Shown here piece after piece: positions 797 through 30,826 of a stretch of 64,000 nt of DNA; position 1 is the first letter of the stretch, and the number at the start of each line of letters is the position of its first letter. The notes below the pieces were generated by a model. It saw nothing but the letters and a program-made list of their open reading frames with translations, was not told the DNA's origin and searched no databases. The stretch comes from Spizellomyces punctatus DAOM BR117 (taxonomy: Eukaryota), in assembly GCA_000182565.2 (NCBI GenBank), contig KQ257466.1; one strand, written 5' to 3'. Both the position numbers and the translations under genes were made by a program.

Positions 797-3700
797 TCAA
801 TGTCCCCGGTCCTTGTCGGCTCGCTTTGCCATCTCCACCAAAATCGGGTACTCGCCCGTCTCTTCACACATGCCACGAAACACTGCATCGGGGCCGGGCG
901 GCTTGGTCATCAGCTCGTAAGGTGACCCGAATTCAGCAACAGTTCCCTGCGATAGAACAAGGATCTTATCGTAATCGGCTACAGTCCTGTGAGTTGTAAA
1001 CAAGGCACGTTACACACTTGTTGAATAACCAATGTTTTCCAATTGCTGGGATTCGTACCTCAACCGATGTGCAACACAAAGCAACGTCGCTCCTCGGAAC
1101 TCTGTACGAATCGTTTCCTGAATCCTTGCATCCGTTTCATGGTCTACACTCGCCGTTGCCTCATCCAACACAATAACTTTACAGCTTCGCAACAACGCTC
1201 GCGCAAGGCAAAGGAGCTGCCGCTGGCCTTGAGAAAAGTTTTGACCACCTTCACTTACAATGGTATCCAAGGTAAGGATGTTAGCAGAGCGATAGGATGC
1301 AAGCGAAGTGTTTGATGAACGCCTTCTCGTGGTACGGGTTTCAGAAGCAAGGGAATTGACAGACGCGCGCCGGGAAAGAGTTGGTGTCGGTGTTAAACTT
1401 TGGTGGCGGGAGGGAACCAAGGATCCTGTCCGATCTTGTACCAGGTTAGTAGTCAAGCTTGAACCGTCACAGCTAACTCCAGCTGCATCTCTACCGGGAA
1501 TGGACACTGCAGTAGCATGCGAATCTAAAAGATGCGCTCTACGCAACGCTGTCCATAGTTGCAAATCGGTGTGCTCAGAAAATGGATCAAGATTGGAGCG
1601 AACTGTCCCCGTGAATAGGATAGGGTCTTGCGGAATGATAGTCAACCGTGACCTAAGATCTTGCAATCCAATCTGCGATATGTCAATATCATCAACCAAT
1701 ATTCGTCCGCCAGAAGCTTCCAAAAATCGGAACAGAGCCAAGGACAGGGTAGATTTCCCTGCTCCAGTACGCCCTAAATAAAATGTATTCTAGCTATGTC
1801 CGAAAAGATCCAGAACAATCATTCCCTTCACGATACATACCAACAATTCCGACTTTCTCTCCTGCCTTGGCAATAAAGTTAACATGTCGAAGAACAGGAG
1901 TCAAATCAGCGGAATATCTAATCAAGCAAGATGTCATGAAAAAAGGGCTGCCGTACGATAACACCAGAGCGATAAACGTACCGAACAGTGAGATCTTGAA
2001 ATTCTACTCTTCCAGCAGCTGGCCACTGTGCTGGGGGTCAGATATCGATCTCCATGACAATCAAAAATATCTGATACATACCGATACGGGTGGTCTTGAG
2101 CCCTCAATGACGGGAGGCGCCTCCTGCTCAATAGACAGATATTCCTGTATACGTTCCACAGAGTTCATACTCATTTCCATCAACGCGTGCATTCTGACGA
2201 CCCACTGCACCAGTCCCGTATTGGTAAGAAAGAGCAAGGACACAAGCAGGGGATTTACACAAACCCATCCTTACCAACAGCGAGTCCGTAAATGTCAACG
2301 CGTAACTCAAACTTAAACCAGCAGCGCCTGGGTCCATGCCATGGCCCCAATGGACGGTTGCCAAAATTGCGGCTGCCGAGCAAAACGAAACCATGGCACC
2401 AACCAAGTCAACTCGCACTCCAAGCCAGCGATTCGACACCCAGAGGTAGAAAAACGCTCGATGATTGGTATCCACACTATCATTGCAGCCAAAACATGAG
2501 AAATCAGTCAGCACTATATGCAGATGATGCGAGCCTACCGAGCGTAATTTTCTTTCATGAATTTGTCTTCCGCGCCATATGCACGAATAGTTGATGCCCC
2601 CCTACAAATGAAGAGAGCATACGTTACGATACAGAGTTTCAGGAAAAGAAGTTTTATCCAACTTACACAATCGTTTCGCTAAAGTGCGAGAATATAGGAG
2701 ATCGGGTAGTCGACTCTAAACGCTTCAGCTCCCTTGAGGTTCGAAGGTATAACCGGGCAACCGAGATATATATTAGCGCTAATGAAAAAAGCATTCACAT
2801 GAGTCCACAAAAGACCACAGGTACAGGCAAGTCCCGAAAACTCAACCTACCAATTGGAACAATACCACCCAAAAACACTGGCGTGACGACCGCGACAACT
2901 GCGACGACTCCTACTGCGGCAACTGTATTTGACAAAAAGTCGCCCCCAAACGCTGCAACCTCTTGATCCAAAGACTGAACATCTTTCGAAAATCTATTCA
3001 AAATGCGTCCCATGGGAGTAGTATCAAAGAACCGCATCGGAGCATGAAGGAGCCTTGCCAGCATTGCGCTATGGAGGTGGCGCGACGCATGGAGGGAACC
3101 AGTGCAATTCACAAGGATTCGGATGAACAGAGTTAACATCGTCAGCAGTCCGATCAGCGCGTAGATAATAAGGTAATAGTTGACCCCCTTTCTGTCTTCT
3201 AGTTTTGAGGAAGGTCCAAGATGATATGTCGGGAAAACCGACAAAACTATCTGCGGCGATTCTGAACCTCCCATTGTGACACGATAGGTAGCTCGTCGGT
3301 AAGCTGCTGCCCAAGACTTTAACCACCAATCTTGGCCAATAGTAGATAGTTGAACGGTAAGGTAGGCAAAAATCAAGGCCATCAAGAACACAAAGCCACC
3401 CGCCGCGCTAATGTACGCCCAGTACACTTTGCCCTTGACGGAACCAACAGCGCGAGCCTCATCTTCGGTGAGTCGAAGGATCTTGCGCTGAGAAGGTTGA
3501 ATACCGGCCGGTCTTAATGCTTGATCAGATTCCAAGCTTGCACCGTCATCAAATTCAATGTCTACGTCTTGGTCTGGATCCGAGTCTCCATCCTCCATGT
3601 CGAGCAGTGGTTCCATAGATGAGGCATCGTTTATCTCTGGGGAGGGAGCAGTGCTCATAATATCGCCTTCTCCGTCACACTTCTCGACTTCTGCCTCAGG

Positions 3701-26317: not shown

Positions 26318-27394
26318 TTATGATTTCAACTGCGCCAACCGCTTCATTAACGCATCCGATTCATCCTCTCTTTGGACAGATTGGGTTGCGTCCAATCGTG
26401 TCCGCGGTACTTGAGCAGCCTAAAAATCCAGGAAAAACCAGGGTTATTACCATTCAATCCTTTTCGTCCCATTTTTTTTTTGAAATATGGGTTATGCGAA
26501 CAAAAAAGAATTTGTTTACCTTTGTTGTTAGATCCAATCCAATTTCATCAAAGACGGCGTTCATGATGTTTTGTGATTCTTCTTGATCACCCTCTTCGTC
26601 CATCATTGAATCTAGGACGTCGTTTACTGGGGATAATGACACCAGTAAGTCACAAAAAAACATTAATGAACATGGATGGGCTTTTTGTAAAAACTCACTC
26701 ATGTCATCCTTCATATCCATCTTTGTATTCTCTTCCCCAAATTGCATCATGGTTTTCTGTAATTGTCCTAAATCGGTAGCCTTGTTTGATGCCGCCATGA
26801 CACGGGTAGCCGAACTCATTGCCTTGGCTGTGGCTGCTTGTGAGGCCATCGTCTACCAAGTAATCTATCAGCATCTATGCAAAAAAGATCGGCACATTTC
26901 TCATCTTGCTTACAGTCGCTTTGACTCGGAGTCCTCCAACCTGGGCATTGACACGGGTGTTTTTTTCAATGTGCTTTCGAAGCTGGAGGAGTTGTTTTGC
27001 TAGGGTTTTTGCTTCGGCTGTTCGCCCTTGTTTTGCAGCCTTTTTGATGTCCGCGATCTGTTATGGTGAATGCAGCGTGAGAAACGTTGCTGGAAAGATA
27101 GTTTCCAACACTCTCTAGCCTCCCATCGATAACCACCGTTTGCAGCAGTTACGGTAATACATCTCCCACCCCTCGTTTTGCTATGTGCCGAAAAATACTC
27201 ACAATCTGCTTCTCTTGGCGCTCCAATCCGCTACGATCTTTCCCCAGCTCTCGCTGAATGGTCCGTACTTCGCGACTGGTTGCCCGTACCTGATCTATTT
27301 CCAGTCAGCATATAAGTATTCCCATTGCAAAAAGACTTGGCAGGAAACACGGCAGCAGACCTTTTACATTCGGCTTTTTTTGTAGCAAATTCAT
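26318..27394 (-). CDS. CHMP2B: ESCRT-III Snf7-family protein, CHMP2B/Vps2-like, multi-exon
   Basis: Exons DQVRATSREVRTIQRELGKDRSGLERQEKQI, IADIKKAAKQG, KTMMQFGEENTKMDMKDDM, QNIMNAVFDEIGLDL; C-terminal MIM-like DALMKRLAQLKS*. Confidence 0.85.
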
Positions 27395-27600
27395 TATGGT
27401 TGTGTTTTGAAGAGTGAGTGAAATAAAGTGCACTCAGTCCATGCAAGCAGGTGGAATGATGTCAAGAAAAGCTTGGCAAGTGGTTCCGAGGTTGACCCTC
27501 AAATATCCCTAGGATCTGTGATGACGATGCTTACATAATGCCCCGTTTTCGCACACATCACACCAGTATTGAGAAAATAAAACGAGTTCAAAGGATAACA

Positions 27601-27630
27601 TAGTGCGGAGCCGATGGGTATTGGCCCTAG
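27601..27630 (+). repeat. Left terminal inverted repeat (including TA)
   Basis: TAGTGCGGAGCCGATGGGTATTGGCCCTAG, preceded by CA, giving CATA at 27599-27602. Confidence 0.93.
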
Positions 27631-27728
27631 TGCAATGATTCCAACCAATTTAATCATAATTTTACTCGATTTAGGCAAATGAACTATGGTGCGATGCATA
27701 AAAGATGCTCCACCATTGAAAAACGGGT

Positions 27729-27773
27729 CCAATATGTGCGGGAATTTTCGCAGTTGCCACATTTCTATATAAA
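27729..27773 (+). promoter_or_regulatory. Putative Pol II promoter of the Fanzor gene
   Basis: CCAAT at 27729-27733 and TATATAAA at 27766-27773, then a pyrimidine-rich leader up to the ATG at 27843. Confidence 0.5.
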
Positions 27774-27842
27774 CCCCTCCACTATCGTCTCTCCCTGCCC
27801 ATTTTCCCAGGCTTTCTTTCATCTTTTTCCACAGATATCATC

Positions 27843-29759
27843 ATGCCGCCAAAGAAGAAGCAAAAGCTTGAAAGGCTCAAAAAACTCGACAAACCCACCT
27901 TACATACCTGCAACAAGACGTCCTTTGCAAAGGCTTTCTTGCCTAATGAGACCTACCGGCAGCGTCTTCTAGATTACATCGCCATCATCCATCAACTCGC
28001 TGACCATGCTTCCCACGCTCTCAAATTCTACATCCTCTCTACATCCACATCGTCTTTCCCGGTTGTTCACGAAGATACAATCGAAGCCATTCTCTATCTT
28101 CTCAACAAGGGGGAGGCTTGGCATCCAAGAAAGGAAGCAAAGAAGGCATGGCGGGATTGTTTGTTGCCATATGTTCAACGGTACTGCCAAATCGTCGGCT
28201 TCATTCATCCAAATCTACGAGGCGAGCAGCAGTCAATTAATTACCTGACAGTGAGTATGATGACGAACCTGAAAGTCAACGTTCAAGAGCATTTCATGCA
28301 GATGCTGCTCCGGTACATTAATCTGCGGTTCGACGTGAAGGGACAGAAGCAGCGACTGCCACCGAAAAGCGATGCGCGAAAGGCTTTCTTTACTCGGCTA
28401 CGCTACTTGAAGTCGGTTTTCCTTTTTGATGTGGTGCCCGAGTTGGAGTTCCTGGATGACTTGACACCATTGGAGAGCGAGGTTCTTGAAGAGATTTGGT
28501 CATTGGATCTCCCATTCCTTCCTAACGATCCCCTTGCCTACGCCATTGTTGCTGATCCGATGTCATTTTTTCCCGCGTACTGCAAACTCTCTGGGCTGTA
28601 TGAACAATATGGCTTCCAACGGTTCAGTGCGATACCTCTGCGCCGCTCGCTCATTCAAAGTCACGTGCGAATCGACACCATCATCCTGTACCAGCATATC
28701 CTTTGCATCACGCGGCGAGACGCAGAAACTGTCGAAAAGGATGATCTGTGGATGCGCGTCTGCAATCTATGTACCAAGGCTTTTCGGTCTCGCTGTGGTA
28801 TGCATTTTGAAGGCTCAATCACCACGGATGGAGCCTCGGTGTCTGTATACCTAAAGCACCCAGAAGCAGACAAGTATGGAAAGCGCGGAGCGAGAAAGTC
28901 AGCAAACACGGTGGCTGCAGAGGTTAAAGCGCTTTATGTGGAGAACAACTTACCTGCTTGTCGAGCAGCAGAGAATGTCGTCGTTATCGACCCAAACAAG
29001 CGCGACATTCTCTACTGCCAAGACAGCAATGGTACGACATTTCGCTACACCGCCAACCAGCGAGCCGTGGAGACTGGAAGCCGGCGGTTTGCAAAGAGAC
29101 GAGAAGCAATGAAGGAAGAAGCTGGAGTTGATCTCATAGAATCACGAATACCATCCCACAAAACAATGAACCTCATGGACTTCACTCGCTACCTTCTCGT
29201 TCGCCGCGCTGATTGGGATCGTCGCAAGGAATTCTATTCGCATCCTGCTCATACTCGATGGAAATGGCACTCCTTCATAAACCGTCAGAAGAGCGAATCA
29301 GACCTCATAAGTAACATGCGCAACAAGTACGGTGAAAACTTTACTGTTGTGATGGGTGATTGGAGCGACGCTGGTCGAACTGCGAGATTTCAGACCTCAT
29401 CAAAGACAAAAGGCTGGCGCACCCTCTTTAAGCGCAACCGCATTGATTGTTTCCTTCTCGACGAGTACAAGACCTCATCTGTTTGCCCTCGCTGTTCCTC
29501 ATCTGAGTTTGTGGAGAAAAAATTCAAAACACGACCTCATTCAAGACCTTGGCGCCGTCGTGAAGGCAAGATTGAAAAAGTCCACGGACTGCTGGGTTGT
29601 ACCAACCCTAACTGTTTGCAGCAAGCCTGGACATCGGGAATGCGCTACTGGAATCGAGATATGCTGTCAACCTGCAACATGCTATTGATTGTGAGATCAA
29701 TGTTGGATGGACACGGTAGACCAGAAGTGTTCAGCAGGAGTGTTCCAGCCGTAGCGTAG
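27843..29759 (+). CDS. Fz1: Fanzor1: eukaryotic TnpB/Cas12-like RNA-guided DNA endonuclease (638 aa; recalled as SpuFz1)
   Basis: RuvC-I VVVIDPN (D383); VVMGDWS; rearranged RuvC-II LLDEYKTSSVC (E541); Zn finger C548-x2-C551...C586-x4-C591; RuvC-III WNRD (D606); WED-type TDGASVSV; N-terminal NLS PPKKKQK; intronless. Confidence 0.96.
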   Translation: MPPKKKQKLERLKKLDKPTLHTCNKTSFAKAFLPNETYRQRLLDYIAIIHQLADHASHALKFYILSTSTSSFPVVHEDTIEAILYLLNKGEAWHPRKEAKKAWRDCLLPYVQRYCQIVGFIHPNLRGEQQSINYLTVSMMTNLKVNVQEHFMQMLLRYINLRFDVKGQKQRLPPKSDARKAFFTRLRYLKSVFLFDVVPELEFLDDLTPLESEVLEEIWSLDLPFLPNDPLAYAIVADPMSFFPAYCKLSGLYEQYGFQRFSAIPLRRSLIQSHVRIDTIILYQHILCITRRDAETVEKDDLWMRVCNLCTKAFRSRCGMHFEGSITTDGASVSVYLKHPEADKYGKRGARKSANTVAAEVKALYVENNLPACRAAENVVVIDPNKRDILYCQDSNGTTFRYTANQRAVETGSRRFAKRREAMKEEAGVDLIESRIPSHKTMNLMDFTRYLLVRRADWDRRKEFYSHPAHTRWKWHSFINRQKSESDLISNMRNKYGENFTVVMGDWSDAGRTARFQTSSKTKGWRTLFKRNRIDCFLLDEYKTSSVCPRCSSSEFVEKKFKTRPHSRPWRRREGKIEKVHGLLGCTNPNCLQQAWTSGMRYWNRDMLSTCNMLLIVRSMLDGHGRPEVFSRSVPAVA

Positions 29760-29780
29760 AACGTAGATTGGTTAGATTAG

Positions 29781-29870
29781 GTTTTCCGAGCCGGTTGTCG
29801 CGCGGTTCAATCCCTGGTGCGGGTGCTAGTGCCAATACCCACCGGCTCCGCACTATCTATAGGTTATGAA
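29781..29870 (+). ncRNA. omegaRNA: ~75-nt scaffold (29781-29855) plus guide read from flanking host DNA (TCTATAGGTTATGAA...)
   Basis: Lies just downstream of the stop codon and overlaps the right TIR. GAGCCGGT (29788-29795) pairs with ACCGGCTC (29841-29848), enclosing hairpins CGCGCGG/CC-TG-GTGCG and GGGT/ACCC. Location matches the TnpB/Fanzor right-end RNA rule. Exact ends are inferred. Confidence 0.88.
29826..29855 (+). repeat. Right terminal inverted repeat (including TA)
   Basis: CTAGTGCCAATACCCACCGGCTCCGCACTA; two mismatches to the reverse complement of the left TIR. Confidence 0.93.
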
Positions 29871-29977
29871 ATCAAATTACAAATAAATACATCAATGAGA
29901 CGAGTGCCCTGGTGCAAGATCTACCATCTGCACTACTCTTCTCAATAATCTTGCCATTAATTATCTTAGCAGACCAA

Positions 29978-30826
29978 CTATTCCGTTTGCCTTCTTTGGG
30001 CCACAACCGCGGTTGCCTGAGGCATCATATCGGGAAACCATTTCGGCCATACATATCCATACATGACAACCCAAAAAGCCAAGCCTGCAATTGTTCCTGC
30101 AATTTTCTCTTGCCACGTGTGGAAATAAACGCTCGTCGCGATGAGCATCGTGTACCAGAGAAGGAGGAGGAAAATGAGAACGCTGGATAGGATTGCGGTT
30201 GCGTTTGCGTATCGTGGACGGACGACTTGAGGTCTGACTAGGAGTTGAAGTTCTTCGTAAATAAAGAGGGACATGTGGATAAGAATGCTGTAAATGGGAA
30301 AAGGTGAGCCGTGACATTCGTATACCATCATCCAAACCCTGTCAAAATACTCACAAACAATGCCCTGACGTATCAAACCCAATCCACTCTCCCCCATTCC
30401 GAACACAAATCCGTGGATGTCCGTGCCCATCAATGCTGCACGTTCCAGACACTAGTAATACGCGGTCAAATAGCGAATGTCCAAACGCCCACTGAGCAAA
30501 CAACACCCAGTAGCTCGTTGCTGCCGTCCAGCGTATGACGGCACGTCGACGGTATCCCGGTGGCGAGGCAAAGAGGGCAAACAAAAGGAGGGTGACGCCT
30601 GTCCAAAACTGTGCGTAAAAAAGGCTATTGGGTTAGGGGTTTGTCACCACAGGCGCAAAACGACGTGTAGCAACTTTACCCATCCACGCTTGGCAAAGTA
30701 TACATTGAGAGGATTTCGTTTATTCGAGAAGACAGATGGTGGTGGTGGGGCAAAAGTGTGAAGAATGGAGCCAACGAGTACAGTCAAAGAATAGAATAAA
30801 AGGAGGTTTCGTTGGTATCTCTTCAT
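29978..30826 (-). CDS. SCS3: FIT-family (Scs3/FITM2) acyl-CoA diphosphatase, ER membrane protein, multi-exon
   Basis: Family motifs NKRNPLNVYFAKRGW, GFDTSGHC, TSVYFHTWQEK. Confidence 0.88.

Follow-up and report, generated by a model that had tools for sequence, protein, structure and literature searches.

The omegaRNA scaffold of a Fanzor 1 locus in Spizellomyces punctatus and its overlap with the right terminal inverted repeat of an SPu-1 element

Features of the locus

The window, i.e., the whole 64,000-nucleotide stretch of Spizellomyces punctatus DNA that was analysed, contains an element (27600-29856) bounded by two terminal inverted repeats that differ from each other at two positions. 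A pattern search of the 64-kb window with the 26-nt terminal core of these repeats (the mismatch position being given as R) matched the two repeat sites only, and two core matches occurred in 0 of 100 shuffles. Searches by blastn with both ends and with the whole element, and by tblastn with the protein, recovered no second copy in the window, only the locus itself. The CATA at the left junction (Table 1) is identical to the TAM published for SpuFz1; in the text consulted of Saito et al. 2023 (PMC10432273) this TAM is given as 5'-CATA and CA is reported to be conserved upstream of the 5' inverted repeat. Inverted repeats of about 30 nt with CA upstream of the left one, as expected of the SpuFz1/SPu-1 locus, are found here. 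The right junction has ACTA at 29852-29855, reading ...CAC, then TA, then the guide. The element was described as SPu-1 by Bao and Jurka 2013, with TA duplications termed putative in the relevant part of that paper (PMC3627910), and the portion of a 2026 review dealing with these duplications (PMC13565253) counts the 3' target-site duplication as included in the omegaRNA scaffold.

The only long open reading frame (ORF) between the repeats is the one at 27843-29759. No transposase candidate was found there, this Fanzor (Fz) ORF being the sole one of more than 151 aa among the 34 listed; the passages of PMC10432273 on SPu-1 state that no transposase was found within any of its elements and that the role of the Fanzor is unknown. 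The ORF contains a 16-nt inverted repeat (28965-28980 and 29003-29018; 94% complementary, 22-nt spacer), probably by chance.

Table 1. Features of the element and summed contig depths around its right end (positions in the window; nt, nucleotide of the RNA; summed depths are not copy numbers, and the counts in the repeat include the left ends of other copies).
Feature	Position	Strand	Remarks
CATA, left junction	27599-27602	+	Conserved CA (27599-27600) and TA (27601-27602), the putative 5' target-site duplication
Left terminal inverted repeat	27600-27630	+	31 nt, 94% complementary to 29826-29856
SpuFz1 (Fanzor 1) ORF	27843-29759	+	638 aa; stop codon TAG at 29757-29759
OmegaRNA scaffold	29781-29855	+	75 nt (nt 1-75); begins 21 nt past the stop codon
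Stem-loop 1	29788-29808	+	nt 8-28; main protein-contacting hairpin; six outer pairs predicted with probability 0.98-0.99
GAGCCGGT	29788-29795	+	5' arm of the helix proposed earlier; in the real fold 5' arm of stem-loop 1
Linker	29809-29814	+	6 nt, A29-C34; unpaired in the prediction, named in the text of PMC10432273
Stem 2	29815-29855	+	nt 35-75, 8-nt loop
Distal stem 2, C40-G70	29820-29850	+	Flexible and dispensable according to the text of PMC10432273
Right terminal inverted repeat	29826-29856	+	Encodes RNA nt 46-76
ACCGGCTC	29841-29848	+	3' arm of the helix proposed earlier, within the right repeat; in the real fold part of the 3' arm of stem 2
TA	29854-29855	+	Putative 3' target-site duplication; last two scaffold nucleotides (U74, A75)
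Guide	29856-29870	+	15 nt of host flank, from U76 onward
Summed contig depth, DNA run X2	29742-29769		14.6-14.7
Summed contig depth, DNA run X2	29770-29825		508-733
Summed contig depth, DNA run X2	29826-29853		1751-1887 (peak 1886.7)
Summed contig depth, DNA run X2	29868 onward		57.5

Identity of the protein and of its RNA

Residues 2-638 of the ORF are identical to chain P of PDB entry 8GKH (8gkh_P; E = 0, 1493 bits), which is an MBP fusion of Spizellomyces punctatus Fanzor 1 (SpuFz1). The next relative was the Fz1 of Parasitella parasitica (PpFz1), which matched in two stretches (E = 4.9e-53). All 24 of the 24 protein residues named in the published text (PMC10432273) are in place, and the RuvC site is intact, the Mg-coordinating residues named there (D383, N385, E541 and D606) all being present. 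Scanning the SpuFz1 ORF against Pfam-A returned no family at E <= 0.1, and Rfam returned no match at E <= 1 in 27000-30500; the assignment is thus without backing from a curated profile and is based on the identity to the PDB chain. (Note that the PDB entry is titled 'OrfB_Zn_ribbon domain-containing protein'; a search limited to profile scans would not detect this Fanzor.)

The omegaRNA nucleotides named by Saito et al. 2023, which run from U5, C6 and C7 to A75, U76 and A86, were compared with the window at 3,400 offsets (27000-30399). With nt 1 set to 29781 all of them (24/24) fit, whereas the best alternative offset fits 14/24. The RNA start at 29781 that the preliminary description had read from the letters is thereby confirmed. 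Six guide bases are among the fitting nucleotides (U76, C77, U78, A81, G83 and A86), and the native omegaRNA whose structure was determined by cryo-EM therefore appears to come from this locus. The locus is the SpuFz1 omegaRNA gene, which had already been published, so that the finding amounts to a rediscovery. From 27600 to 29856 the window very probably carries a copy of SPu-1, a DNA transposon of Spizellomyces punctatus; this judgement was passed on the explanation as a whole, i.e., on the element, SpuFz1 and the fold of the omegaRNA together, the homing reading given below being its tentative part.

Regarding metagenomes, the exact 26-nt pattern of stem-loop 1 gave no match among the contigs searched, and the protein search yielded 159 stretches by peptide pattern, none of which was confirmed by tblastn. 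A rhizosphere metagenome run (X5) contained a fraction of 0.52 of the sampled words of 29700-29950, the unique flank included, which is no evidence of habitat.

OmegaRNA scaffold and guide

According to the text of PMC10432273 that concerns the RNA, an 88-90-nt RNA from downstream of Fz was detected both in native small RNA-seq and in the purified RNP; its conserved part of 75 nt spans the 3' inverted repeat, and a variable extension of 14-15 nt is the guide. The RNA ends used here (about 29781 and 29869-29870) are taken solely from this published small RNA-seq. Jiang et al. 2023 likewise describe, in the part of their report on guide RNAs (PMC10530073), Fanzor guide RNAs that overlap the right inverted repeat. 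The claim of the preliminary description that the scaffold spans the right terminal inverted repeat is therefore correct and already in print for this locus. Its scaffold stop at 29855 corresponds to A75 of the published RNA (as numbered in the text of PMC10432273), the conserved part ending at A29855 with AT-rich unique DNA beyond, and contigs from other copies diverge at 29855-29860. Its further claim, that the host flank becomes the guide and that every insertion acquires a new one, agrees with the published guide of 14-15 nt, which varies between copies (same text); the RNA does not end at or before the repeat but runs these 14-15 nt past the conserved region.

Double-stranded DNA cleavage that depends on the guide and on the TAM (5'-CATA) has been demonstrated by a TAM screen and cleavage assays, as set out in the biochemical text of PMC10432273: the SpuFz1 RNP recognises CATA followed by about 15 nt complementary to the guide, both strands are cut, and any TAM mutation abolished cleavage. 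A second guide target in the window was not found as a perfect match; the only other match has 3 mismatches, which is unremarkable, as many matches being obtained in 42 of 100 shuffles.

Other copies of the element

Public contigs and reads were placed on 29560-29960, to which run X24 contributed nothing. The contigs of DNA run X2 part from the window sequence at 29855, 29856, 29857 and 29860, with four different continuations (summed depths in Table 1). Similarity between copies thus stops at the scaffold end and the flanks differ, as observed in short contigs of one run rather than in an alignment of full copies. The sharp drop in conservation after 29855 that had been predicted is accordingly seen as divergence at 29855-29860, and similarity does not continue beyond. 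T at 29856 is kept at three of the four divergence points (29856, 29857 and 29860, not 29855), and the continuation at divergence point 29856 begins with G. In the few short contigs concerned, T29856 and this G, taken with the conserved CA of the left side, hint at a palindromic insertion site CA-TA-TG; if such a site were real, the first guide base would be semi-fixed.

In RNA run X22, the scaffold is covered by 60-nt raw reads that mostly have the direction of the ORF, with reads from other copies mixed in and no RNA start or end positions listed among them. Most of them come from another subfamily, distinguished by 29776 A>C, 29781 G>C, 29790 G>A, 29808 C>T and 29810 A>T, whose reads depart from the window sequence before about 29773-29777 and after 29819. 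The shared block (about nt -4 to 39) comprises stem-loop 1, the linker and the base of stem 2, which fits the statement in the text of PMC10432273 that the omegaRNAs of ghost loci differ in stem 2. The change 29790 G>A accounts for 607.5 of 630.1 contig depth in X2 (summed depth, not copy number) and for 850 of 968 plus-direction RNA reads in X22, and variant-type reads in X22 outnumber the letters of this locus several-fold (850/968 at 29790). These variant reads may come from 'ghost' loci devoid of the ORF; according to Saito et al. 2023 (text of PMC10432273), S. punctatus has 42 Fz and 134 ghost SPu-1 loci. If this origin were true, ghost omegaRNAs would dominate the pool in the X22 library. 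A further 121 X22 reads pass 29856 into mutually discordant sequences (agreement 0.48); their strand and end of origin are ambiguous, and they are compatible with read-through into different flanks.

Fold of the scaffold

Both the minimum free energy (MFE) fold and the centroid fold of the scaffold consist of a hairpin at nt 8-28, an unpaired stretch at nt 29-34 and a hairpin at nt 35-75 with an 8-nt loop (-28.9 kcal/mol). The predicted two stems with a 6-nt linker and no pseudoknot agree with the description of the solved scaffold in the text of PMC10432273, which gives stem-loop 1 (U16-G22 being named), the linker A29-C34 and stem 2 (U35-A75) with an 8-nt loop, without a pseudoknot. The structural text of Xu et al. 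2024 (PMC11423790) adds that stem-loop 1 (SL1) has seven bp and that one stem-loop (SL2) lies between it and the guide. (Note that the base-pair list of the solved structure used here was inferred from the text of the paper and the thermodynamic fold, not from coordinates.) The fold energy of 29781-29875 is unremarkable (z = -1.33; 25 of 200 shuffles fold as well).

The preliminary description had proposed a different scaffold, in which GAGCCGGT (nt 8-15) pairs with ACCGGCTC (nt 61-68). The two octamers are indeed complementary, lie where they were said to lie, the second of them within the right repeat, and form the longest perfect Watson-Crick complement in the 75-nt scaffold. A complement of at least 8 bp is only mildly unusual, as it was found in 41 of 2000 dinucleotide-preserving shuffles, and no explanation better than chance was found for it. 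The pairing of the octamers around two hairpins is the part of the proposal that does not hold: helix 8-15/61-68 has a pair probability of 0.004-0.005 when the 75-mer is folded and of about 0.003 for the 90-mer, and forcing the helix raises the MFE from -28.9 to -24.9 kcal/mol, a cost of 4.0 kcal/mol, and the ensemble energy by 3.4-3.7 kcal/mol. Its 3' arm falls within C40-G70, which, according to the deletion results in the text of PMC10432273, was removed without loss of editing activity. Judged together with the SPu-1/SpuFz1 explanation as a whole, the long-range helix is in all likelihood no part of the functional fold.

A role for the complement outside the functional fold might lie in an alternative conformer, protein-free or precursor, in this subfamily of copies, for example one that holds the scaffold inactive or marks it for processing until SpuFz1 binds. 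All solved structures are protein-bound and so cannot bear on a protein-free conformer; the variant data speak against its conservation across copies, and we consider it very improbable.

Still less probable, to the point of being hardly tenable, is the proposal in its original form, namely a multibranch scaffold closed by 29788-29795 and 29841-29848 around two small hairpins, with C29842 selected to strengthen the helix. The length of the perfect complement, equalled in 41/2000 shuffles, speaks for it, as does the pairing of C29842 with G14 that it would provide, but this is outweighed by the low pair probability and the 4.0 kcal/mol worse forced fold, by the two stems and linker without pseudoknot of the solved structure (text of PMC10432273), by the presence of SL2 only between SL1 and the guide (text of PMC11423790), and by the dispensability of C40-G70, which holds the 3' arm. 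The variant letters point in the same direction. The majority variant 29790 G>A converts the G10-U26 wobble of stem-loop 1 into an A-U pair, tightening that hairpin, whereas it introduces an A-C mismatch into helix 8-15/61-68, and no change is listed alongside it at the partner position 29846. In addition, T rather than C stands at 29842 in most of the X2 depth, left-end copies counted (figures below).

An equally slim chance is given to a reading at the DNA level, in which GAGCCGGT is an inverted internal copy of part of the repeat that serves a transposase as a second site, the complementarity of the RNA being a by-product. It is the reverse complement of 29841-29848, lies about 45 nt inside the right repeat and has a length mildly beyond chance, yet blastn of both ends against the window recovers only the repeats, with no perfect equivalent near the left end or elsewhere, the A at 29790 in most other copies destroys the identity, the same bases are fully explained as the 5' arm of stem-loop 1, and the element has no known transposase. 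The octamer was also considered as an inner direct repeat of the IR/DR kind, and this was rejected, as it is inverted relative to the terminal motif and has no counterpart at the left end.

C29842 and the right repeat

In the two-stem fold, the loop of stem 2, its 3' arm and the first base of the guide are encoded by the right repeat. One of the two left/right mismatches lies at C29842, opposed to a T in the left repeat when that repeat is read as its reverse complement, as the preliminary description had it; the helix in which this C was said to replace a G-U by a G-C pair is not supported, and the predicted partner of C29842 (C62) is G49 in stem 2. The same logic of G-U to G-C would carry over to predicted stem 2, which has -19.6 kcal/mol with C at nt 62 and only -18.1 kcal/mol with the left-type base U, a gain of 1.5 kcal/mol for C. 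(Note that the published map gives little detail of the distal half of stem 2 and that the G49-C62 pairing comes from thermodynamic prediction only.) The idea that both differences between the repeats strengthen stem 2 was rejected, since the left-type base at nt 50 gives -20.6 kcal/mol and is thus no worse. Regarding other copies, T at 29842 accounts for 1561.3 of the summed contig depth of 1886.7 in X2 and was read in 45 of the 88 X22 RNA reads in the plus direction, figures that include left-end copies. The argument from C29842 is therefore weakened: the pair lies in a dispensable, poorly resolved region of stem 2, T is prevalent at this position, and the difference at nt 50 is of no help.

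The second left/right mismatch (27626 versus 29830) looks private to the left end of this copy. Reads and contigs from the left ends of other copies, as placed on 29826-29856, have no difference listed at 29830, and have T at 29842.

The preliminary description had placed the right end under a dual constraint, as transposase site and as RNA scaffold. Within the repeat-encoded RNA (nt 46-75), the only protein contacts reported are those of A72 and A75, which lie at the base of stem 2, C40-G70 making none (contact description in the text of PMC10432273). As contacts are confined to A72 and A75 and C40-G70 is dispensable, the constraint is limited to the outermost bases: it is plausible for at most the outermost few, and the strong form of the claim is not upheld. 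The constraint on the DNA side of the right repeat is itself inferred, as, according to the text of PMC10432273, no SPu-1 transposase is known.

Proposed mechanism

The scaffold takes in the end of the element up to its last base and with it the TA that is the putative target-site duplication; the transcript continues past this end into the adjoining DNA, which provides each insertion with a guide of its own. If TA is the duplicated target, the vacant site would consist of CA, a single TA and the right flank, i.e., of a TAM followed by a guide match. SpuFz1 may thus be aimed at the empty site, by analogy with the restorative homing of TnpB. The occupied site would probably be spared, as ACTA and not CATA precedes the guide match there; given that any TAM mutation abolished cleavage, cutting at the occupied right junction is not to be expected. 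According to the text consulted of the 2026 review (PMC13565253), in Fanzor structures the TAM includes the 5' target-site duplication (TSD) and the scaffold includes the 3' TSD. As this split between TAM and scaffold is already stated there, the homing reading is not new.

Comparison with known systems

This locus has been published as the type example for RNA-guided endonucleases of eukaryotes, so that the present reading matters little for discovery; the principle of a scaffold in the element end and a guide in the flank has already been demonstrated here by small RNA-seq, biochemistry and cryo-EM (text of PMC10432273). Its value is one of calibration: a reading from the letters alone found the exact base at which the RNA starts and that at which the scaffold ends, understood how the guide arises, and had the helix wrong. 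Compared with the SpuFz1 omegaRNA (Saito et al. 2023, Nature, 8GKH; Xu et al. 2024, Cell, 9CEU-9CEZ), the protein, scaffold, guide, repeats, CA and CATA TAM are the same and no difference was found; only the secondary structure proposed earlier departs from the published one.

The omegaRNAs of PpFz1 and GtFz1 (Xu et al. 2024) resemble the present one in a conserved 7-bp stem-loop 1 on the RuvC/TNB surface and in a 3' guide, whereas the region from SL1 to the guide differs, with three stem-loops in GtFz1 and a 4-bp SL2 in PpFz1 (structural text of PMC11423790). TA-duplicating transposons with Fanzor1 (Tc1/mariner, IS630; Bao and Jurka 2013) share the TA-flanked terminal inverted repeats and a Fanzor as passenger ORF (relevant part of PMC3627910). 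An autonomous transposon of the Tc1/mariner-IS630 type has a DDE transposase between its repeats, whereas the element described here has TA at both ends and encodes no transposase.

The omegaRNA (reRNA) of ISDra2 and other IS200-IS605 TnpB systems is alike in that the guide RNA lies at the right end of the element, with the scaffold inside and the flank as guide, and in that the TAM equals the left-junction sequence, the vacant site being the target. IS200/IS605 elements are without inverted repeats or target-site duplications, whereas 31-nt inverted repeats and putative TA duplications are present here. The IS200-IS605 TnpB RNA overlaps the 3' end of tnpB and has a pseudoknot, whereas the RNA of the present locus starts 21 nt after the stop codon and, according to the text of PMC10432273, has none. 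The SpuFz1 omegaRNA is therefore not a member of the TnpB omegaRNA family, but it works like one.
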